DNA of 64,000 nt from a virus (lineage: Duplodnaviria; Caudoviricetes), in the IMG/VR virus record IMGVR_UViG_3300025121_000014, positions 96,001 through 160,000 of that record. One strand, 5' to 3'. A program made the translations under genes and the position numbers. The notes beneath the pieces were generated by a model that was given only the letters and a program-made list of their open reading frames with translations, was not told where the DNA came from and did no database searches. The stretch's first letter is position 1; each line of letters begins with the position of its first letter. Below, in pieces: positions 12,393 through 61,276 of the stretch.

Positions 12393-13298
12393 ATGAAAAC
12401 CATTAAACTACCATATAAAAGTGATTATGATTTAACAGACTTAATGAGACAATATACGATATTAATTAAATCTTGTTATAATAAATCAATTAAGGGTTTT
12501 ACTGATAAAGAAATAAGATTATATTTAAAAACATTAAATAATGTTGGTGATTTAGATTCAAAATTTGTAGAAAATGCGATAATTGATAAAAAAACATTCC
12601 AAAAAGAAAATAAGATAATTTTCAGAAAATCAAATTTCATTAAACGAAGTAAAAATAAAATAGATAAAAAAGAATTTAAAGAAAATAAATATTTACCGAT
12701 AATTAATTATGGTGAGAAATCTTGTAAAGGTAACAGAAAATTTCAGATAGATTTAGATAAAAATAAGATCATATTTAAATTAAACAGAAAAACACACATA
12801 AATATCTATTTACCAAAATTAAAAATTAATTATTTAAAAGAATTAAATAAAGTTCAAAACTTAATGGAAGAATGTAAAATATCTGTATCATTTAAATTAG
12901 ATACTAAAAATATTTATATATCATATGAAGAAATAGTTAAAGATAATTTAATTAAAAGATGTAAAATAAATAGCATAAAAGTTTATTTAATTCATCCAGC
13001 ATATACTACTTTTATCGGCAATTTACAATATGATTATTTTGACCCGATTAATGCATCAATTGAAGTTGCTAGAAGAGGATATCAATATAGTAAAATGTAT
13101 TTAAAAAATAAGTTTTATCCTAAATTTAGTTTAAAGAATCAATGGAATCAATGGAAGAAAGAAGTTGGTTTGTTCACTGAAGATTGGAAAGAACTTTATA
13201 AACAAATAAAAACTTTAGATTTGAGTTATAGAGTTCCACTTAATGAAGTGGTTTTTAGGAAAATATGCATAAATCATATTATATTTAATTTAATATGA
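12393..13298 (+). pseudogene. Internally deleted TnpB-like protein
   Basis: Basic N-terminus and C-terminal HPAYTTFIGNL..DPINASIEVARRG, but no RuvC-I (D) or RuvC-II (E) segment between YISYEE and IVKDNLIKRC. Confidence 0.55.
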
Positions 13299-24136: not shown

Positions 24137-24177
24137 AAATTCTTTTAAGTTTTTTTGAGTTTTCTTTGACGATTAAT
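24137..24177 (-). mobile_element. Degenerate IS200/IS605-type left-end remnant
   Basis: Minus strand TTTAT|ATTAATCG-TCAAAGAAAAC, with the same 8-nt spacing as the intact left ends. Confidence 0.5.
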
Positions 24178-24230
24178 ATAAAAATTAAATTATTTTTAAT
24201 TAATATATAATTAAAAATAATTTAATTAAG

Positions 24231-34517: not shown

Positions 34518-34943
34518 ATGGAACACGACAAAAAACTAAAAAATTTCATTAAAACTAATATTAAAGATTTTTTGAATGAACAAGTTGTGATGAAAAAACC
34601 TATCATAATTAAATCAAAAAAGAATGATTTGATGTATATTAAAATTAGCTTTGATGAAAAAGGTAGAGTTGATAAAATTGAGAATAAATGGGATGTTAAA
34701 ATACCCGAATATTATGGTTTTGATATTAATGAAATTGAAATAAATAATTGGATTAGAAGAAAAGAACCAGATTTATACATTGAAAAAGAAATAAACGAAA
34801 ATACATATAAAATAGCGTTTGATGATGAAATTAAATATGAACTTAAACGTTATTTACAGAATACAATATGGAATAAAGTTGGTGGAATTGACGAAAGAGC
34901 TGATAAACTAATGGAATTACATAATGAACTACACATCAAATAA
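34518..34943 (+). CDS. Hypothetical protein with its 3' end interrupted by mini-IS A
   Basis: C-terminal residues ELHIK* are read from the element's right end. Confidence 0.6.
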   Translation: MEHDKKLKNFIKTNIKDFLNEQVVMKKPIIIKSKKNDLMYIKISFDEKGRVDKIENKWDVKIPEYYGFDINEIEINNWIRRKEPDLYIEKEINENTYKIAFDDEIKYELKRYLQNTIWNKVGGIDERADKLMELHNELHIK

Positions 34944-35185
34944 ATATTAATGTGTTTCAACGTTTCATAGACTTGACTATTGTCAACGCCTCACCGTCTT
35001 TTTGTTTATACTACGAAATCAGTCCCTGACCCACAGTTTAAAAATATTTTTAAACATTTTTAATGACACTTAACTTGGTTTTCGTTAAATGTTTGACTAT
35101 CAAGTATTTACATACTTGAACCTCAATGATTTTACTTGATCTAGGTTTGTAGATCAAAACCATTAAATCATTTCAAAGAACTTTT
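34905..35185 (-). ncRNA. Putative omega-like RNA from mini-IS A plus flanking guide (boundaries approximate)
   Basis: Three 8-bp hairpins, then a TnpB-3'-like scaffold (GGTCAGGGACTGA..AAACAAAAA..GAGGCGTTG..AGTCTATGAA) and the right end; promoter motif at 35198-35207. Confidence 0.55.
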
Positions 35186-35276
35186 ATTTAATTATTATAT
35201 ATATTAAATAATGAAAGCCAAAAAAGTCAAATTCATCACATAACTAAAGGTTTATGTGTTTTCTTTGATGGCTCAT
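34924..35276 (-). mobile_element. Mini-IS A: ORF-less IS200/IS605-type element (353 bp)
   Basis: TTTAT precedes the left-end hairpin ATGAGCCATCAAAGAAAACACATAAACCTTTAGTTATGTGATGAATTTGAC; right end GAAACACATT..GATGTGTAGTTCAT. Confidence 0.85.
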
Positions 35277-35295
35277 ATAAAAAAAAGTTTTTAAA

Positions 35296-38794: not shown

Positions 38795-39062
38795 AATTAA
38801 AACAAAGTTAGATAATGAACTACCATTAATTTAAAAATTTAATGGTTTCTTTGTATATTTATTTACAAAAACTCCGTAGAGGCTCGTCCATTGAAGCAAA
38901 AGTAGATGTTTTTTAAAAACATATTTAAACTACAAAAAACTTGTTCGTCAAACAAGTTATCTGGTTGAAACTGAACCAGTTCAGTAATATGACGAAAACT
39001 ACTTTATTGATTTTACATCACTTAAGATTTAAAGTGATAACCAAATATATCAAAGAACTTTT
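38795..39062 (-). ncRNA. Putative structured omega-like RNA from mini-IS B (boundaries approximate)
   Basis: Hairpins ATCACTT/AAGTGAT, ACTGAA/TTCAGT, AACTTGTT/AACAAGTT, TTTGTA/TACAAA; promoter motif at 39075-39084. Confidence 0.5.
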
Positions 39063-39155
39063 ATTTAATTATTATATATATTAAATAATTAAAGACTGTT
39101 TTTGTCAAATTCATCCTTTAAACTAAAGATTTAACGGTTTTCTTTGACTGGTCAT
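38815..39155 (-). mobile_element. Mini-IS B: ORF-less IS200/IS605-type element (341 bp)
   Basis: TTTAT|ATGACCAGTCAAAGAAAACCGTTAAATCTTTAGTTTAAAGGATGAATTTGAC left end; right end GAAACCATTAA..TTAATGGTAGTTCAT. Confidence 0.85.
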
Positions 39156-39177
39156 ATAAAAAAAAATAAAAATAAAA

Positions 39178-40405: not shown

Positions 40406-40480
40406 GGCCTCATAGTTCTAATTGTGCAGAATAGCGGGTTCTAACCCCGAAGGTTGTAGGTTCGAATCCTACTGAGGTCA
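40406..40480 (+). tRNA. tRNA with anticodon CUA (putative amber suppressor); CCA not encoded
   Basis: Acceptor GGCCTCA/TGAGGTC, D stem GTTC/GAAT, anticodon arm GCGGG-TTCTAAC-CCCGA, variable AGGTT, T arm GTAGG-TTCGAAT-CCTAC. Confidence 0.8.
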
Positions 40481-40568
40481 CAAATTATAATTTAAATCGA
40501 CTAATAAAATACAAAAATTTGAATATCATCATCCGTATCGTTATATTAATTTTTAAATATTTAAATAA

Positions 40569-45569: not shown

Positions 45570-46538
45570 ATGACACAAACTAAAGCATTTATTGATATTT
45601 ATACAAAAGACTATCCAGTAGGAAAAGTTTTGAAATGTAATATGTGGTTAGAAGGAGAATATACTGATAATATGGTATGTGAATTATTATCTAATGGATT
45701 AAGTGATTATGTGAATGGTATAAAAAAATTCAGAAATAAATATATTGTAGCTGGTTTTAAAGTTAATTTTACTATGTATTTTAAAAATAAAGATGAAAAT
45801 AATAGTTTTAATGAAATTATAATAATGGACGAAAGAGATTATAAACAGAACAATACTATATTATTAAATAATAATCGATTAAATAATAATCGATTAAATA
45901 ACATATCAATTACTAAAGTTGATGGTCGTGTTATAGTTGAAGGATCTGAAAATTCACAAAAAGTAGAACTTACATCCGATTTAAAAATAGCTACTGATGG
46001 TGGTTCGACCATAAATATTAATGATAAAACAACTGAAAAAAAGAAATTTGTAAAAGCTAATTTAAAAAATCTTAGACTATATTTATACAATAATGAAGAA
46101 TTAACCGAATTAAAACATAAATTAGAAATTGAATTTTTTAAAAGAAAATATAAATTAAGTGATGATGAATTTACATATTATTTAGAAAATAGAAATATTA
46201 TAAAACCCGAAAATATTAAAAAATCATTTAAAAGAAATGGTGGAGATGCATTTAAAATTAAAAAAAATAGAATTAGAAAAAAATTATTCCCACTTGATAA
46301 AAATGATAAAATAATTGATACTACTATAAAAAATGATAGTGAAAATATTGTTGAAAAAAAAAGTCCAATAATCCCTGAATTATCTCCTGATGCGATTAAA
46401 ATTGCATCTGAAATTAAACCAAAATCAAGAATTAAAATTATTAAACCTAAAACAACAAAATATAAAAAAATGAATGGAAAAACAACACCAGTATCAAAAA
46501 CAACAATTAATGAACTACCAACTACACTAAAGATGTAG
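45570..46538 (+). CDS. Hypothetical protein, paralog 3; 3' end altered by the IS insertion
   Basis: TKAFIDIYTKDYPVGKVLKCNMW; the empty site restores ..KTTINKTIKIENPLKN*. Confidence 0.6.
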   Translation: MTQTKAFIDIYTKDYPVGKVLKCNMWLEGEYTDNMVCELLSNGLSDYVNGIKKFRNKYIVAGFKVNFTMYFKNKDENNSFNEIIIMDERDYKQNNTILLNNNRLNNNRLNNISITKVDGRVIVEGSENSQKVELTSDLKIATDGGSTININDKTTEKKKFVKANLKNLRLYLYNNEELTELKHKLEIEFFKRKYKLSDDEFTYYLENRNIIKPENIKKSFKRNGGDAFKIKKNRIRKKLFPLDKNDKIIDTTIKNDSENIVEKKSPIIPELSPDAIKIASEIKPKSRIKIIKPKTTKYKKMNGKTTPVSKTTINELPTTLKM

Positions 46539-47969
46539 TGGTTTCTGAATCGAACTGATTCATCTCTTTAAGCACTTCATTGCCGTTGCCTAATTTCTTA
46601 GGTCTTATTTTTGCTCCATGCTCGTAATCAGACGTTCCATCTGATATATTTTTTCTATATCCTTCATTGAGGATATTGATTGCTGCATTTACATCTCTGT
46701 CTTGTTTTTCACCACACTTACAATCCCAAGTTCGGTCTTTTAATGTTAAACCATTATTGATCCACCCGCACTTACTACAAGTCTTACTTGAAGGAAAAAA
46801 TCTATCTATGTGTATGACTTGTTTATCATTCCATTCAGCCTTGTATTCAAGGATATTAATGAAAGTTGACCAAGCAACATCTAAAATTGATTTGTTTAAT
46901 CCTGATTTAGCAGACTGACCATTTGGAAGATATTTACCATTTTCATCTTGTTTTGATTTACACCTATGAGACATACCTTTAACATTTAAGTCTTCAAGGT
47001 AAATCACATCAAATTGTTTTATTAAATCTAAAGCGGTTTTATGTATTAAATCCATTCTTGAATTACTTATCTTTTCATGTATCCTTGCAACTTTAATTCT
47101 TTGCTTTTCATAACGAATTGATTGTTTTACTTTTCTTGATAGAGATTGTTGATTTAATTTTAATTGATGTTGATAGTGTTTTAAAAATCTATGGTTCTTG
47201 ATTTTCGTTCCATTAGATAACACTAAAAAATCTTTTAATCCTAAATCTATTCCTACTGATAATCCACTTTTATTCATTGATATGTATTCCATTTCAGTTA
47301 AAATAGAAACAAAATACTTACCAGTAGGTGTTTTTGATATAACACAGTGTTTTATAACACCATTTATTTTACGTTCCATAATCATTTCAATACCATCTTT
47401 TCTAAACTTTGGTATGTAAAGTTTATTTTTCTTTACAGATACAAATTGTGGTATGGTAAATGAATTTTTTGATTTTCTTGACTTAAATTTTGGAAATTTT
47501 GTCCTCTTTTTAAAAAATCCATCATATGCAGTATCTAAACAATTTAAAGAAAATTGAAGTGTCTGACTATTAATTTCTTTCAACCATTTTTTATCTTCAA
47601 GTTTTTTAATTTGAGTTAATTCTTTTGATTGGTCATAATAATTTAAAGTTTTCTTATTGTTTAAATATTCATTTTTTCTTTGATTTAAAAAATAATTATA
47701 CACAAACCTCACTGAACCAAAATGTTTATTCAATAACACTTGTTGTTGTTCTGTTGGTTCTAATCTAAACTTATATGTATATCTAATTATTTTCATTTTT
47801 TATGTCAAAGTTTTTTCTTAACATAAGTATATATTAAAAGAAAAATGTCTGTTTTTCCATTTTTGAATTATTTATTAAAACTTTTAACTATTTTCAAAAT
47901 AATTAAAACCCGTTTTGGTCAAATTCATCCATTAAACTAAAGATTTAACGGTTTTCTTTGACGGTCAGT
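46510..47969 (-). mobile_element. IS200/IS605-family (tnpB-only, IS1341-like) element T1
   Basis: TTTAT (plus-strand ATAAA 47970-74), left-end hairpin 47918-47969, right end GAAACCACTACATCTTTAGTGTAGTTGGTAGTTCAT. Confidence 0.88.
46522..47796 (-). CDS. tnpB: RNA-guided endonuclease TnpB, apparently intact
   Basis: YTYKFRLEPT HTH, GIDLG, YLEDL, CSKC..CKC zinc finger, DRDVNAAINI. Confidence 0.93.
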   Translation of the reverse strand: MKIIRYTYKFRLEPTEQQQVLLNKHFGSVRFVYNYFLNQRKNEYLNNKKTLNYYDQSKELTQIKKLEDKKWLKEINSQTLQFSLNCLDTAYDGFFKKRTKFPKFKSRKSKNSFTIPQFVSVKKNKLYIPKFRKDGIEMIMERKINGVIKHCVISKTPTGKYFVSILTEMEYISMNKSGLSVGIDLGLKDFLVLSNGTKIKNHRFLKHYQHQLKLNQQSLSRKVKQSIRYEKQRIKVARIHEKISNSRMDLIHKTALDLIKQFDVIYLEDLNVKGMSHRCKSKQDENGKYLPNGQSAKSGLNKSILDVAWSTFINILEYKAEWNDKQVIHIDRFFPSSKTCSKCGWINNGLTLKDRTWDCKCGEKQDRDVNAAINILNEGYRKNISDGTSDYEHGAKIRPKKLGNGNEVLKEMNQFDSETTTSLV

Positions 47970-47987
47970 ATAAAACAATAAAAATCG

Positions 47988-48016
47988 AAAACCCCCTTAA
48001 AAATTAAGGGGGTTTT
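47988..48016. terminator. Bidirectional hairpin terminator
   Basis: AAAACCCCCTTAA-AAA-TTAAGGGGGTTTT between convergent genes. Confidence 0.8.
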
Positions 48017-48021
48017 TTGTT

Positions 48022-48507
48022 TTACAATGTTAAACATTTTTTGATATCTTTAGATTTAAAATAAATAAATATTTTTTCTCGTTGTTTAACATTAGTCGTT
48101 TCAATATTATTTAATTTTTTCTCTATGTTTTTAATATAAATAATTAAATCATCTATACCTTGTCTATAATTAAATGGTGCTTTATAATATTCTGGAAATT
48201 TATTCATATAAGTTGTTACATCTTTTAGAATAGTATTTTTATTTATATAAAGTTCATCTTTTATTACATTACTTTTTATTTGTAATGAATCTAATACATT
48301 TTCATTAAATCTATGAATTAAATTATCAGTCTCTATAACTTTCAATAAACCAATTGCAAATGCATCTTCTTCTGACAAAGATATAGGCTTATTATCTTCT
48401 ACTATTTTTTTAATTTCTTCTTCATCATTATTATATAAACAGAATTTTTTGTATTTATCCCATAAACATCTTTGTATAATATCATTTGGTGTTATGATTA
48501 TTTGCAT
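48022..48507 (-). CDS. Hypothetical protein
   Basis: 161-aa ORF. Confidence 0.6.
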   Translation of the reverse strand: MQIIITPNDIIQRCLWDKYKKFCLYNNDEEEIKKIVEDNKPISLSEEDAFAIGLLKVIETDNLIHRFNENVLDSLQIKSNVIKDELYINKNTILKDVTTYMNKFPEYYKAPFNYRQGIDDLIIYIKNIEKKLNNIETTNVKQREKIFIYFKSKDIKKCLTL

Positions 48508-48830
48508 ATTTTTTCATTATTTTTTGCTAAATTTTCCTGTATCATTTCATATTTTTCGCATAATTTATTAAAATTGAATTCATCTGTTGAAGATAATTCA
48601 AACCATTCCCCCCAGGTGTGTTTATGTGAAAACATGTTATGTAAAGTTTTTTCAATTTTTCTACTATGTTTTGATGAATATGTATCTGCTATTTTTATTT
48701 CATACGGACATCCGGTTTGTAATTCTTTAATTCTTTTTTGAACCGAAACACCAGTATATCCAATTTTATATAGCGTTTTATCATCATTAACAATTTTTAA
48801 AAGATAAATAGTAGGACCAATTTTGACCAA
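48498..48830 (-). CDS. GIY-YIG / T5orf172-like protein
   Basis: IYLL..YKIGYT..VQKRIKELQTGCP..IEKTLH..GEWF. Confidence 0.8.
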   Translation of the reverse strand: MVKIGPTIYLLKIVNDDKTLYKIGYTGVSVQKRIKELQTGCPYEIKIADTYSSKHSRKIEKTLHNMFSHKHTWGEWFELSSTDEFNFNKLCEKYEMIQENLAKNNEKICK

Positions 48831-49203: not shown

Positions 49204-49848
49204 TTAAATATTTTTTTTTATTTTTTTTATTTTTTTTAATCTTTCAAATAAAATATTAGGATTTTCATATAGTTCAAAAACTTCTTTAAGTTGATTTTCA
49301 TCTTTAATATCATATGTATGTTGCCACACAAGACCTTCTAAATGTATATCTGTTTTATCCCTTTCAGTTTGAACTACATCAATATAAAATGATTTAGGTG
49401 TAAATGGAAAATTCCTAATATATTGACGACTTGATAATGTTTTTCCATTTTTTAACTTAATACCACCACCTTGGCTATTAGAACATATACCATTATTATC
49501 TTTAAATATAATAGCATTTATATAATAAGCTTTACCATCTTTACCTTCTTTAAATACAGCACTATTTCTATTATTTTGATATACATGTGTTTTATGTACT
49601 GTATAATTAATATCCCATTCATCATCTTCGCCTGTTAATGGTGACAATGTATTTTGTAAACATAATGTTTTTACTGCTTGGGATATTATAGAAGCCGTAT
49701 AAGGAGTTGAACCACCACTTTGTCCACTATTACCAAACTTATCTATTAATGCTAAAATTTCGTCTTTAAACGGTAAAATAATTGAATCTTGTTCTGTATT
49801 TTCAATAATTTCGAATTCCCTTATTGCTTTATTTTTTGTATAGTTCAT
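49204..49848 (-). CDS. Phage hypothetical protein
   Basis: FGNSGQSGGS, LSPLTGEDDEW motifs. Confidence 0.6.
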   Translation of the reverse strand: MNYTKNKAIREFEIIENTEQDSIILPFKDEILALIDKFGNSGQSGGSTPYTASIISQAVKTLCLQNTLSPLTGEDDEWDINYTVHKTHVYQNNRNSAVFKEGKDGKAYYINAIIFKDNNGICSNSQGGGIKLKNGKTLSSRQYIRNFPFTPKSFYIDVVQTERDKTDIHLEGLVWQHTYDIKDENQLKEVFELYENPNILFERLKKIKKIKKNI

Positions 49849-50682: not shown

Positions 50683-51207
50683 ATGAAGTTAACAGATAAG
50701 CAAATAAAGGAAACATATATAAATGTATTAACTAGTACAAAAGTTAATGATATAATTAAGAAAAATAGCCAGGGACTTAAACTTGCGCTAAATGAACATA
50801 TATGGTTTGAAAAACAATTTGGTGTGAGAAAAGCAAATCTTAATTTTGCTATGACAACAGGTGAAATAGATGAATATGCCAAATGTAAAATGGATGTTCA
50901 TTACTTTGCAAATAAATATTGCCACATTAAAAGAGAAGACGGTACAATTGGACCAATGCAACTAAGAGATTACCAGAGAGATATTATAGATTTATATGTT
51001 AATAATAGATATTCTATATTAATGACTAGTAGACAATTAGGTAAGTGCAACTCCTTGGTAACCAGATTGTTAGTAAAATTTGACAATGGTGATGAATATG
51101 AAATTACTATGGGAGAATTATATTATACTTACATTCAACAAGAAAGAAAACTAACAATCATAGAAAAAATTAAACTTTTTCTATATAAAGCACTATCTAA
51201 ACTATAA
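50683..51207 (+). CDS. terL: Terminase large subunit N-fragment plus 53-aa N-intein (Cys1 at 51046)
   Basis: LRDYQ adenine motif, SRQLGK then CNSLVTRLLVKFDNG..ITMGELY. Confidence 0.85.
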   Translation: MKLTDKQIKETYINVLTSTKVNDIIKKNSQGLKLALNEHIWFEKQFGVRKANLNFAMTTGEIDEYAKCKMDVHYFANKYCHIKREDGTIGPMQLRDYQRDIIDLYVNNRYSILMTSRQLGKCNSLVTRLLVKFDNGDEYEITMGELYYTYIQQERKLTIIEKIKLFLYKALSKL

Positions 51208-52827
51208 TATTTGATTATAAATATATTTTAAATTACCAGAATTATATATTCTATAAATTTTTCTTTCTAACATAATTTGATGTTCAGTTTTGTTAACATC
51301 ATAACCTTCTTTAATTAATTTATCTTTTCTGAAATTAAATCTATGGTGTCTAATTTGGTCAATAATATAATAATAATTAGGTGATGTTTTATGTATAAAA
51401 TCAAATCCTAAAACTTCATATAATTTTCCATTAGAATGACTTCTATCTGCATATGTAGTTATATTATCAAATTTATAATTTCTAATAAAATACTTAAATA
51501 ATTTACTAGCACATCCTATTACATTTGTATTAAGTTTATTACAAAACCTTAACATTTCATATTGTCCTTCGGTTTTTGAAGATGAATTCATAGATTTTCT
51601 TAATTTTCCAAAAGTCATTAATGAAATTAATTCATTTTCATAAAATAAACCTAATTTAATTTTACTTCCTACAAAACCTTGAATATGATTTTCATCTAGA
51701 AATTTTCTAACTAATTTATTATCAATTATTTCTTTAACTTCTGTTTTTCTAGCGTATATTTTGTTTGGTGTTCTACCTAACTTATTCAATATCATTGATT
51801 TAACTATATCTTGTTTATATACCCAATCATCTTCATATATATGAATTAATTGAATATTTTTTTTATCACATAATTCAGTTTTATCTAAATGATAATTATT
51901 CGGTCTATATAATTCATTATGCCAATAAACACCATTAAATTCAAATGCTAATTTTAAATCAGGGATATAAATATCTAATTCTTTTCCATCTAATATTTTT
52001 CTATCATTTGTTATTATTAAATTATTATAATTTTCTTTTATAAAATCTAATAATTTATTTTCTTTGTCAGAACCAGGATCATTAATAGGATTACATATTG
52101 TACATAATGTAGTATTAGTTTCTAATCTATTATAAAAAATTGTTTTAGGTATTTTACTTATATGATTATTACATTGATATATATAAGTATAATCTTCATA
52201 ATCAATATCAATAATATTGTTATTTTTATATTTTTGGATTAATTTATTTTTTTTATTAATTGTTTTTTTTTCTTGGGTAGATTTTAATTTTGATATATTA
52301 TCAACACCATATAATTTTAAATTAGTTTCTCTATATTTTTCTAAATTATTATAATTTTCATCACCATATTTTTCTTTTTTAGTAACTAACGATTGTTTAT
52401 GATTATTATAATTTTCATCACCATGTTTTTCTTTTTTAGTTTTTTTAATTTTTTCAATATGTTTTGTTGTTTTTGATGGGTGAGTCGTACCATATTTATC
52501 TAAACATGTTTTTATATATTTTTTACTATTTGTATAATTTTCATCACCATATCGTTCTTTTTTAGTTTTTTTCATTTTAATATATTTACATTTATTACAA
52601 TAATATAAGCCATCATCATATGTATTATTAATATATGTTCTATACTCCATATTTTTAATATCTCCACATATATCACATTTAACATCAATTTTAATTGGAC
52701 TGCCTTTAATTAAATCTTTTATATTTATATTTATAGTATCTCCTTTTTTGGCATCATAATTTTTATTTTTATAAAATGTAATATTTCTAGTACTTATATT
52801 CATTTTTACTTGTTCAGTTATAATCAT
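51202..52827 (-). CDS. Hef/Vsr-like free-standing homing endonuclease with KYG repeats and a GNAT-like C-domain
   Basis: ELDIYIPDLKLAFEFNGVYWH, IHIYEDDW, YADRSHSNG; start moved from 52896 (inside the IS end) to MIITEQ. Confidence 0.75.
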   Translation of the reverse strand: MIITEQVKMNISTRNITFYKNKNYDAKKGDTININIKDLIKGSPIKIDVKCDICGDIKNMEYRTYINNTYDDGLYYCNKCKYIKMKKTKKERYGDENYTNSKKYIKTCLDKYGTTHPSKTTKHIEKIKKTKKEKHGDENYNNHKQSLVTKKEKYGDENYNNLEKYRETNLKLYGVDNISKLKSTQEKKTINKKNKLIQKYKNNNIIDIDYEDYTYIYQCNNHISKIPKTIFYNRLETNTTLCTICNPINDPGSDKENKLLDFIKENYNNLIITNDRKILDGKELDIYIPDLKLAFEFNGVYWHNELYRPNNYHLDKTELCDKKNIQLIHIYEDDWVYKQDIVKSMILNKLGRTPNKIYARKTEVKEIIDNKLVRKFLDENHIQGFVGSKIKLGLFYENELISLMTFGKLRKSMNSSSKTEGQYEMLRFCNKLNTNVIGCASKLFKYFIRNYKFDNITTYADRSHSNGKLYEVLGFDFIHKTSPNYYYIIDQIRHHRFNFRKDKLIKEGYDVNKTEHQIMLERKIYRIYNSGNLKYIYNQIL

Positions 52828-52884
52828 ATTATTAGTTTTTATTTTATATATAAAAAGGTCAAAGTGTAAAATATCATTATTTAT

Positions 52885-53736
52885 ATGACCCGTCAAAGAA
52901 AATCGTTAAATCTTTAGTTTAAAGGATGAATTTGACATACCAAAATTAAAATTTACTGATATAGATTTACACAGAGAATTTAAAGGTGATATAAAAACTA
53001 TAACTATTTCAAAAACAACAACAAATAAATATTATATAAGTATTTTAGTCGATAACAAAAAAGAATTGCCTGAAAAACAACCAATTAAATTAGAAACAAC
53101 CGTTGGTGTCGATTTGGGAATTAAAGATTTTGTTATCACTTCAGATGGAAAGAAATTCAAGAACCAAGATTTCTTTAAATCTGCTTTAAAGAAACTAAGA
53201 GTTGAACAGCGTTCCCTTAGTAGAAAACAAAAAGGATCAAACCATTATTTAAATCAAAAATTAAAGGTTTCATTATTTCACGAACACATTAAAAACCAAA
53301 GAGAAGATTACTTACATAAAATAACTAAATACCTTGTAGATAATTATGATACAATTTGTATAGAAAATCTTGGTGTTTCTAATATGATGAAAAACAATAA
53401 GTTAAGTCGTGCTATAAGTGATATGGGTTGGTTTAAATTTAAATCATTTCTTGAATATAAATGTGAATGGTATGGAAAGAATTTAAGTGTGATTGGTAGA
53501 TTTGATCCTTCATCAAAAACATGTTCTGTTTGTGGAAAAATAAATAAAGAATTAACATTAAAAGACAGAAACTGGAAATGTAATTACTGTGGAACAGAAC
53601 ATGATAGAGATATAAATGCTGCAATTAATATAAGAAATTTTGGGTTGAGGAACCAACCTAGCGTTACACAAAGTGAATGGTTGCATTGTGCTTGTAGCGT
53701 AGAAACACACAAATCTTCAGTTTGTGCGTAGTTCAT
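52885..53736 (+). mobile_element. IS200/IS605-type element T2 with 5'-deleted tnpB (852 bp)
   Basis: TTTAT 52880-84, left-end hairpin, right end GAAACACACAAATCTTCAGTTTGTGCGTAGTTCAT. Confidence 0.88.
52937..53731 (+). pseudogene. tnpB: N-terminally truncated TnpB
   Basis: Frame IPKLKF..KYYISILV..GVDLG..IENL..CSVC..CNYC..DRDINAAINI begins right after the left end, with no HTH. Confidence 0.85.
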
Positions 53737-59659: not shown

Positions 59660-61276
59660 TTATTTTAAATTCTTTAAATATTTAAATTTTAAATTACCAG
59701 AATTATAAATTCTATAAATTTTTCTTTCTAACATAATTTGATGTTCTGATTTATTAGCATCATAACCTTCTTTAATTAAAACATCTTTTCTAAATCCAAA
59801 CCTGTGATATCTAATACCATCAACGACATAATAATAATTTGGTTTAGATGTATGTGAATATATGAATCCTAAATATTCATATAATTTTCCAGTTGAATGG
59901 CTTCTATCTGCATACGTAGTTATTTCTTTAAATTCATAATTTCTTATAAAATATTTAAATAATTTTGAAGCACCACCTATTACATTAGTATTTAATTTAT
60001 TACAAAATCTTAACATTTCGAACTGCTTTTCTTTTGAAACTGAATTCATCATTTTTCTTAATCCACCAAAAGTCATTAAACTAACTAATTCATCTTTATA
60101 AAATAATCCTATTTTAATAGATGATCCCATAAATCCTTGAATATGATTTTCAGCCAAAAAGTTTCTGACTAATTTATTATCTGTTATTTCTTTTACTTCT
60201 GTTTTTCTTGCATATATTTTATTTGATGTTTTACCTAACTTATTTAAAATCATTGATTTAACTATATCTTGTTTATAAATCCAATCATCTTCATAAATGT
60301 GTATTAATTGAATTTTTTTTTCATCACATAAATCAGATTTTATTTTATGATAATCGTTTGATTTATATAATTCATTATGCCAATAAACTCCATTAAATTC
60401 AAATGCTAATTTTAAATCAGGTAAATAAATATCTAATTCATAAGGATTTATTATATTCCTATCATTTGTAATAATTTCTTCTTTATAGTTTTCTTTTATA
60501 AAATCTGATATTTTTATTTCAGAATCAGATTTAAAATTGAAACCTATTGAATTACACTTAGTACATAACGTAGAATTTAAAATTAATCGATTTTTTAATA
60601 ATCCTTTATTTATTTTAAAAATTTGGTTACAATTATTACATTTAATAAAATAATCCGGATTATTATAATTTATAACTATAATATTATATTTATCTTTATA
60701 GTATTTGATGGAATTTTTATTTTTAATATTTTGTATTTTTTTATATAATTCTTGTTGTATTTCTTTAGATTTTAATCTATATTCAACTCCATATTTTTCT
60801 AAATTTGTTATTTTAATTTTATCCCATACTTCTTCTGTTTCTAAACCATATTTCTTTCCGTATTTACTTAAATTAGTATTTTGAAGTTTTTTAATTATTG
60901 TATTTGAATGCATAGGGTGATCAACACCATATTTTTTTAATAATGTATTTTTAGATTTTTCTTTTATTTTATCTAATTGAAAAATATTTTCAACATTATA
61001 TTTATCATTTAATCTTCTAATACATTTATCATTAGAACATTTTTTAGAGCAACAATATTCTTCTGTTAAATTATTAGTATTTTTGATATATTGGAAATAT
61101 TTTAATTTTTTTTCTAATCCACATATATCACATTTTACTTTAATTTCAACATGACTATTTTTTGATAAATCTGTTGGTTTTACCAATGAATATTTTAATA
61201 AAACATCATACCCTAATTGTTCATAATGTTTTTTTAATTTTCTATTATTAATTTTTACTTCTTTTGTAATAATCAT
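59660..61276 (-). CDS. Second Hef/Vsr-like homing endonuclease
   Basis: ELDIYLPDLKLAFEFNGVYWH; C-terminal half highly similar to 51202-52827. Confidence 0.75.
   Translation of the reverse strand: MIITKEVKINNRKLKKHYEQLGYDVLLKYSLVKPTDLSKNSHVEIKVKCDICGLEKKLKYFQYIKNTNNLTEEYCCSKKCSNDKCIRRLNDKYNVENIFQLDKIKEKSKNTLLKKYGVDHPMHSNTIIKKLQNTNLSKYGKKYGLETEEVWDKIKITNLEKYGVEYRLKSKEIQQELYKKIQNIKNKNSIKYYKDKYNIIVINYNNPDYFIKCNNCNQIFKINKGLLKNRLILNSTLCTKCNSIGFNFKSDSEIKISDFIKENYKEEIITNDRNIINPYELDIYLPDLKLAFEFNGVYWHNELYKSNDYHKIKSDLCDEKKIQLIHIYEDDWIYKQDIVKSMILNKLGKTSNKIYARKTEVKEITDNKLVRNFLAENHIQGFMGSSIKIGLFYKDELVSLMTFGGLRKMMNSVSKEKQFEMLRFCNKLNTNVIGGASKLFKYFIRNYEFKEITTYADRSHSTGKLYEYLGFIYSHTSKPNYYYVVDGIRYHRFGFRKDVLIKEGYDANKSEHQIMLERKIYRIYNSGNLKFKYLKNLK

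Follow-up and report, generated by a model that had tools for sequence, protein, structure and literature searches.

A tnpB-only IS200/IS605 element with readable ends, target motif and predicted guide in a huge phage

The T1 element and its ends

A 64,000-nucleotide stretch of a Caudoviricetes genome (IMG/VR record IMGVR_UViG_3300025121_000014, positions 96,001 to 160,000; hereafter the window) carries an insertion sequence (IS), named here T1, which encodes TnpB and lacks tnpA (Table 1). T1 adds a member to the IS200/IS605 family, a known type of system. The window is strongly AT-rich (20-30% GC); among the proteins it encodes are a large terminase of T4 type and structural proteins of the virion. 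A first-pass annotation, made from the letters and their open reading frames (ORFs), had described T1 as an intact tnpB-only IS, and its reading as a tnpB-only IS605-family element matches the family's established rules. T1 has subterminal imperfect hairpins at both ends and no terminal inverted repeats; its flanks contain no repeat, that is, no target-site duplication, and the element sits 3′ of TTTAT.

The window contains five exact copies of TTTAT-N8-TCAAAGAAAA, with about 0.007 expected by chance (composition estimate). Four of the five are left ends, those of T1 and of three sibling elements, T2, A and B: each is followed by a hairpin whose loop reads (T)CTTTAG, and the hairpin by ATGAATTTGAC. 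The earlier statement that four elements have TTTAT 8 nt before this motif stands for A, B, T1 and T2; it had passed over the fifth signature, which belongs to a solo left-end stub. All four elements share a terminus, as at first reading; their right ends consist of GAAAC, a hairpin and GTAGTTCAT, and the six other TAGTTCAT 8-mers in the window, a number equal to the chance expectation, lack this right-end context. Alignment of the ends also confirms the shared (T)CTTTAG loop, its replacement by TCTTCAG in the T2 right end, and the compensatory changes in the hairpin stems of A. Over 13 family members, the right-end hairpin shows seven pairs with double compensatory changes. An outer stem between GTCAAA and TTTGAC is possible at the T1 left end, and the final 5 nt of the right end, TTCAT, form the transposon-encoded motif (TEM). 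The left boundary is fixed by sequence to ~1 nt only, because the first element base is an A in every copy.

The proposed target-adjacent motif (TAM), TTTAT, is borne out by the relatives of T1. It precedes 15 of the 16 left ends found by pattern matching in the window and related phage contigs, 14 of them at the exact spacing and one with a spacer 1 nt longer, the sixteenth having TTTGT. TTTAT is also present before the left ends, read by eye, of two bacterial loci (L128/L129) and of megaphage loci L130-L132, and all true right ends scanned finish in TTCAT. The guide of a TnpB omega-RNA is reportedly the flank 3′ of the right end (Karvelis 2021). By this position rule, also given by Meers 2023 (bioRxiv 10.1101/2023.03.14.532601), the 16 nt beyond the T1 right end would form the guide, in agreement with the first-pass assignment.

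Table 1. Coordinates of T1, its siblings and associated features, numbered along the window.
Feature	Position	Strand	Remarks
T1 element	46510-47969	-	1460 bp, IS605-family, 424-aa tnpB
tnpB	46522-47796	-	424 aa; HTH_OrfB_IS605, OrfB_IS605 (RuvC) and Cas12f1-like TNB zinc ribbon (Pfam)
TAM TTTAT	47970-47974	-	directly 5′ of T1 left end
T1 left end	47918-47969	-	ACTGACCG, TCAAAGAAAA, hairpin, then ATGAATTTGAC; stem covariation in A and relatives
T1 left-end hairpin	47929-47951	-	CCGTTAAA / TCTTTAG / TTTAATGG
T1 right end	46510-46545	-	GAAAC, hairpin, GTAGTTCAT
Predicted 16-nt guide TAATTGTTGTTTTTGA	46494-46509	-	flank 3′ of right end, by position rule
Predicted omega-RNA scaffold	46510-46651	-	overlaps tnpB 3′ end; four stem-loops including right-end hairpin
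Promoter-like motif TTAATATATA	47828-47837	-	31 nt upstream of tnpB ATG
Phage ORF interrupted by T1	45570-46538	+	final 10 codons IS-derived
Displaced original 3′ end of interrupted ORF	47970-48007	+	ends in NKTIKIENPLKN and stop; continues into terminator hairpin
TTTAT-N8-TCAAAGAAAA, T1	47952-47974	-	pattern scan
TTTAT-N8-TCAAAGAAAA, T2	52880-52902	+	pattern scan
TTTAT-N8-TCAAAGAAAA, B	39138-39160	-	pattern scan
TTTAT-N8-TCAAAGAAAA, A	35259-35281	-	pattern scan
TTTAT-N8-TCAAAGAAAA, fifth copy	24160-24182	-	pattern scan
T2	52885-53736	+	sibling element; internal deletion joins left end to mid-tnpB; right end intact
B	38815-39155	-	ORF-less mini-element resembling a palindrome-associated transposable element (PATE); same ends and promoter block
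A	34924-35276	-	ORF-less mini-element
Solo left-end stub	24159-24182	-	TTTAT and first 19 nt of left end; hairpin absent

Insertion site and empty allele

Deletion of T1 in silico yields an intact 325-residue host ORF ending in TINKTIKIENPLKN and a stop, exactly the restoration that had been claimed, and the stop of the restored ORF falls in the loop of a terminator hairpin. Consistent with this, the syntenic contig L014 contains an ortholog of the host ORF (52% identity) with no element at the locus, leading directly into the homologous terminator and the same 161-residue gene. On this comparison of sequences, ORF restoration and L014 synteny together prove the insertion. The comparison with an empty allele that had been proposed as a check thus confirms the event and gives the boundaries only roughly, short of the nucleotide, because the ORF tails have diverged. 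A single ortholog cluster was found for the host ORF, and no relatives of it were found in the viral_contigs collection or in five related viral records.

The T1 locus is identical on metagenome contigs, those read extending up to 98 kb, and a 232,944-bp contig with the locus is present in the protein table. Contigs of six different sample accessions share this identical locus, which is therefore fixed in the sampled population. No near match to it was found in the phages collection. CheckV completeness estimates for related viral contigs (3-13% for 23-83 kb; 70% for 501 kb) indicate that the phage is huge.

TnpB and the predicted omega-RNA

T1 TnpB aligns end to end with ISDra2 TnpB (8H1J; E 2e-64), with the RuvC residues D, E and D aligned, in accord with the three acidic motifs reported from the letters. 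The tnpB ORF passes through the right-end hairpin and its stop lies 12 nt before the element boundary. The ratio of non-synonymous to synonymous substitution (dN/dS) is 0.13-0.28 against four relatives (72-85% identity), and 0.13 against the closest of them; judged by this ratio, TnpB is under purifying selection. A 19-residue insertion follows the RuvC-II glutamate (residues ~275-298) and is common, among the aligned relatives, to L002 only. T1 tnpB ends in TAG, and read-through would extend the protein by 4 residues only.

RNAalifold, applied to the terminal ~140 nt of T1 and of four other members of its lineage, gives four stem-loops with 9 compensatory pairs. One stem has been remade in T1 (GAAUC/GAUUC versus GGAAC/GUUCC), though the encoded peptide differs, and a covariance model (R1) scores 159 bits at the T1 scaffold. 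This covarying 3′ fold fits the expected omega-RNA scaffold overlapping the 3′ end of the gene, as a structural prediction. No omega-RNA match was found in Rfam at the gathering threshold or at E<=1. Applied to T2, B and A, the T1-lineage scaffold model scores only 22-26 bits, most of which the terminal motif and the right-end hairpin account for, and use of their RNAs by T1 TnpB is therefore not claimed. Elsewhere in the window, there is no TAM and guide match with fewer than 2 mismatches; a look-alike in T2 (53009-53029; 2 mismatches, guide positions 2-3) was judged a low-complexity coincidence.

Autonomous relatives

A tblastn search of the window with a pair of TnpA queries, one from the element's own family, found no TnpA, as had been read from the letters. 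Non-autonomous copies are normal in IS200/IS605. The suggested search for a Y1 TnpA bordered by these ends succeeded in other phage contigs and failed in the window and related records. A scan of 185,579 species genomes with the left-end pattern gave 32 matches, one of which is real (L034); the other 31 lack TTTAT or the loop and are due to chance. L034, a 2.9-kb contig with a T4 gp30.3-like gene, carries a complete element consisting of a left end, a divergent Y1_Tnp gene (E 2e-31), TTTAATATATA and tnpB. L048-L056 likewise carry the autonomous form, as do contigs L130/L131 (549-561 kb). Relatives of the L034 TnpA occur on at least 142 viral contigs, and the closest ones, as well as L130/L131, have the same ends. 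Phages commonly carry tnpB: relatives were detected by tblastn in 430 of 50,697 phage records, and published examples exist.

This distribution suggests that huge phages are the main home of the T1 lineage. Despite the single real exact-pattern match among the species genomes, there are bacterial relatives, whose ends have diverged. L128/L129 are multi-copy autonomous elements, with a TnpA 75% identical, on a 5.17-Mb bacterial chromosome that contains SusC-like TonB receptor genes; their TAM is TTTAT and their TEM TTCAC. Their setting hints that the phage host phylum could be Bacteroidota.

A promoter-like motif before tnpB

The motif TTAATATATA, which had been noted at its position before tnpB, is present there and occurs 17 times in the window versus 6.7 expected, a count that no shuffle reached. 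Twelve copies lie at most 40 nt upstream of co-oriented ORF starts, including those of structural genes and of the C-terminal half of the terminase, and three copies are inside T1, A and B. The closest relatives of T1 have T(A/T)ATATATA at the same site before tnpB, and the L034/L048/L130 lineage has TTTAATATATA 6 nt before the ATG; unrelated sequence occupies the motif position in the bacterial relatives L128/L129. Motif density per 10 kb is 2.4-2.7 in the window and close phage loci, 0.23 in other viral tnpA loci and 0 in bacterial loci. A generic sigma-70 and terminator scan was uninformative and was not used.

These counts and positions indicate that TTAATATATA is a genuine, oriented signal that precedes genes of these phages and is carried by the IS lineage; we infer that it would be a promoter, and a late one. 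The AT-richness of the genome (22-25% GC) is the point in favour of a different reading, in which the motif before tnpB is AT-rich background or another signal and the element shows no adaptation to phage transcription. This is unlikely, given the excess over expectation and over every shuffle, the strict orientation and 5-40 nt spacing to ORF starts, the conservation in the same place in related phage IS copies with replacement in bacterial relatives, and a density in related phage loci ten-fold above that of other viral loci. The first-pass annotation had proposed that the IS has adapted to the phage transcription programme. Sequence statistics support the motif behind that proposal; the motif is kept before tnpB across the phage-borne lineage and absent in bacterial relatives, and the adaptation would therefore be lineage-wide, not acquired in this phage. 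The concentration of the lineage in huge phages, the phage-type motif before tnpB and its absence in bacterial relatives constitute a modest new point.

Proposed mode of action and alternatives

T1 is very probably a non-autonomous IS200/IS605 member, with tnpB and without tnpA, from an AT-rich lineage of huge T4-like phages, acting by the following mechanism. Expression of tnpB would probably start at the element's own TTAATATATA, which matches the motif before many phage genes, and TnpB would process this transcript to an omega-RNA whose 16-nt guide equals the flank TAATTGTTGTTTTTGA. TnpB with this omega-RNA would cut IS-free copies of the locus that carry TTTAT and the guide match, either the donor joint that excision leaves or the element-free allele in a co-infecting phage, and recombination with IS-bearing genomes would return the element to the cut locus. 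Such cutting and recopying, in a T4-like phage with its high rate of recombination, would amount to RNA-guided homing into co-infecting relatives. The occupied site would be spared, because the guide match there adjoins TTCAT, supplied by the right end, and not TTTAT. For insertion at new sites, a co-infecting phage or the host would have to supply a Y1 TnpA in trans; the three other elements and the stub in the window show that such insertions have happened.

Several observations weigh against this account. TnpA is missing from the five related viral records as it is from the window, and the 233-kb source contig carries no member of the 120 closest TnpA clusters, so that T1 may currently lack the ability to transpose. 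T1 TnpB has CKC as its second zinc knuckle, whereas the four closest relatives have CPKC or CPEC, one residue longer. The sole empty allele found, that of L014, is diverged enough in the host ORF to leave the boundaries unconfirmed at nucleotide level, and no IS-free allele of the same phage was found in the protein collection.

The missing TnpA, the CKC in place of CPKC and the degraded forms of T2, A, B and the stub would agree with T1 being an immobile, decaying relic with an inactive TnpB, passively carried by the phage. That T1 is such a relic is nevertheless very unlikely: its ORF is full-length with the catalytic triad, both of its ends are perfect, dN/dS against the closest relative is low, and T1-specific compensatory changes preserve the RNA stem. 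The CKC knuckle, moreover, recurs in L051 and L080; L051 retains both ends beside its tnpA, and the variant is therefore probably tolerated. Calling the element intact was reasonable on the full-length ORF, the D-E-D triad, the dN/dS range and the recurrence of CKC in other lineages, and T1 is probably still a functional mobile element, as far as its sequence allows this to be judged.

A second alternative is that the phage has co-opted TnpB as a weapon or regulator, cutting DNA of competing phages or of the host, or acting as a TldR-type repressor. The phage-type promoter motif, the fixation of T1 in all sampled contigs and the presence of counter-defence and selfish neighbour genes (Tad3, T5orf172) are consistent with it. 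We give co-option little credence: the intact catalytic triad is not TldR-like, the guide is plain local flank as for any mobile copy, both transposon ends are intact, and no match to TAM and guide with fewer than 2 mismatches lies elsewhere in the window. Cutting of empty alleles in co-infecting phages is already covered by selfish homing.

Selfish homing by a single non-autonomous element, the preferred reading, has a more elaborate variant. The phage-borne lineage could be an RNA-guided homing system specialised to huge T4-like phages, in which TnpB and dispersed, promoter-equipped, ORF-less omega-RNA genes (A, B and others in the genome), fired from a late-type promoter when numerous genome copies recombine, would constitute a multi-locus drive without TnpA. 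This is improbable; if true, the homing system would be a loose, CRISPR-array-like multi-guide arrangement, with several loci driven at once into co-infecting relatives.

T1 is a candidate for naturally occurring RNA-guided homing from phage to phage. No paper on such homing by TnpB between phages was found in the literature searched, and a 2026 review draws the analogy conceptually only. T1 also shows that a single phage window is enough for a reliable reading of a TnpB element's ends, TAM and guide, and the T1 lineage is a source of compact, AT-adapted pairs of TnpB and omega-RNA.

Comparison with known systems

T1 is assignable to an ISGst2-like group, with TAM TTTAT and a TEM that differs at position 3 (TTCAT), which ties an uncultured huge-phage IS lineage to an experimentally characterized TTTAT-TAM group. 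In ISGst2 of Geobacillus stearothermophilus, the TAM of TnpB2 has been proven experimentally to be TTTAT, the same as that read for T1, and the TEM is TTCAC; TnpB2 cleavage and excision by one TnpA both depend on the TAM/TEM motifs, and the same work describes trans-mobilization by one TnpA and PATEs that encode omega-RNAs (Meers 2023, bioRxiv 10.1101/2023.03.14.532601). The two elements have in common the IS605 type, the subterminal hairpins, the TTTAT TAM and a donor joint that is the TnpB target (predicted for T1), and each family comprises numerous copies without tnpA as well as PATEs, which a single TnpA could mobilize in trans. The bacterial L128/L129 elements have the exact ISGst2 TAM/TEM pair. 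T1 differs from ISGst2 in residing in a huge phage rather than a bacterial chromosome, in being far more AT-rich and in the phage-type motif before tnpB. Unlike ISGst2, the autonomous relatives of T1 have tnpA divergent from tnpB; ISGst2 is set beside T1 by motifs and architecture, not by protein.

ISDra2 TnpB (PDB 8H1J, 8EXA) shares with T1 TnpB its domain order and D-E-D triad over an alignment of 400 residues, as well as an omega-RNA that overlaps the 3′ end of the gene, predicted in T1. The ISDra2 TAM is TTGAT, in contrast to TTTAT in T1, which also differs by the insertion after the RuvC-II glutamate and by its CKC knuckle. IS608 of Helicobacter pylori, the structural model of Y1 TnpA transposition, carries tnpA and targets TTAC, unlike T1 with its TTTAT target and no tnpA. 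In both elements, the cleavage site lies ~18 nt upstream of the left hairpin and ~9 nt downstream of the right one, and inverted repeats and target duplication are absent. The Seg and Mob homing endonucleases of T4-like phages provide a functional analogy only: as for T1, the element-free allele of a co-infecting phage is expected to be cut and converted, but recognition is by protein rather than by a would-be guide RNA and TAM.

Sibling elements and neighbouring genes

T2 derives from another tnpB lineage, with 45% amino-acid identity to T1. A and B are each ~350 bp. Over its last 140 nt, A matches the autonomous L048-type IS in its right end and omega-RNA region at 75% identity and has a similar fold; removal of A lengthens the upstream ORF but provides no independent check of the boundaries. 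No relatives of the B interior were found among the fetched loci. The stub at 24159-24182 is probably the remnant of a lost element. It adjoins a copy of TTAATATATA on the opposite strand (24200-24209).

Two genes near T1 are conserved in the IS-free relative L014, namely a T5orf172/MUG113-domain gene (48498-48830, minus strand) and a Tad3-like gene of the Thoeris inhibitor family (49204-49848, minus strand; E 4e-23). An amber-suppressor tRNA gene (anticodon CUA) lies at 40406-40481 (plus strand; 55.6 bits in Rfam). The TAG recoding at which this tRNA hints is unsupported; the gene map is dense under code 11, and TAG serves as the stop of 12 of 71 ORFs. A reading of the ORF at 12393-13298 (plus strand) as a nuclease-dead TnpB is likewise unsupported: its BLASTP comparison with T1 TnpB yields E 0.06, and no match to it was found in Pfam or PHROGs. 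Two paralogous minus-strand genes (51202-52896 and 59660-61276), both with DUF7487 matches, share 81-84% nucleotide identity over 600 nt. The first has an additional weak match to the Mom family, and T2 abuts its start.

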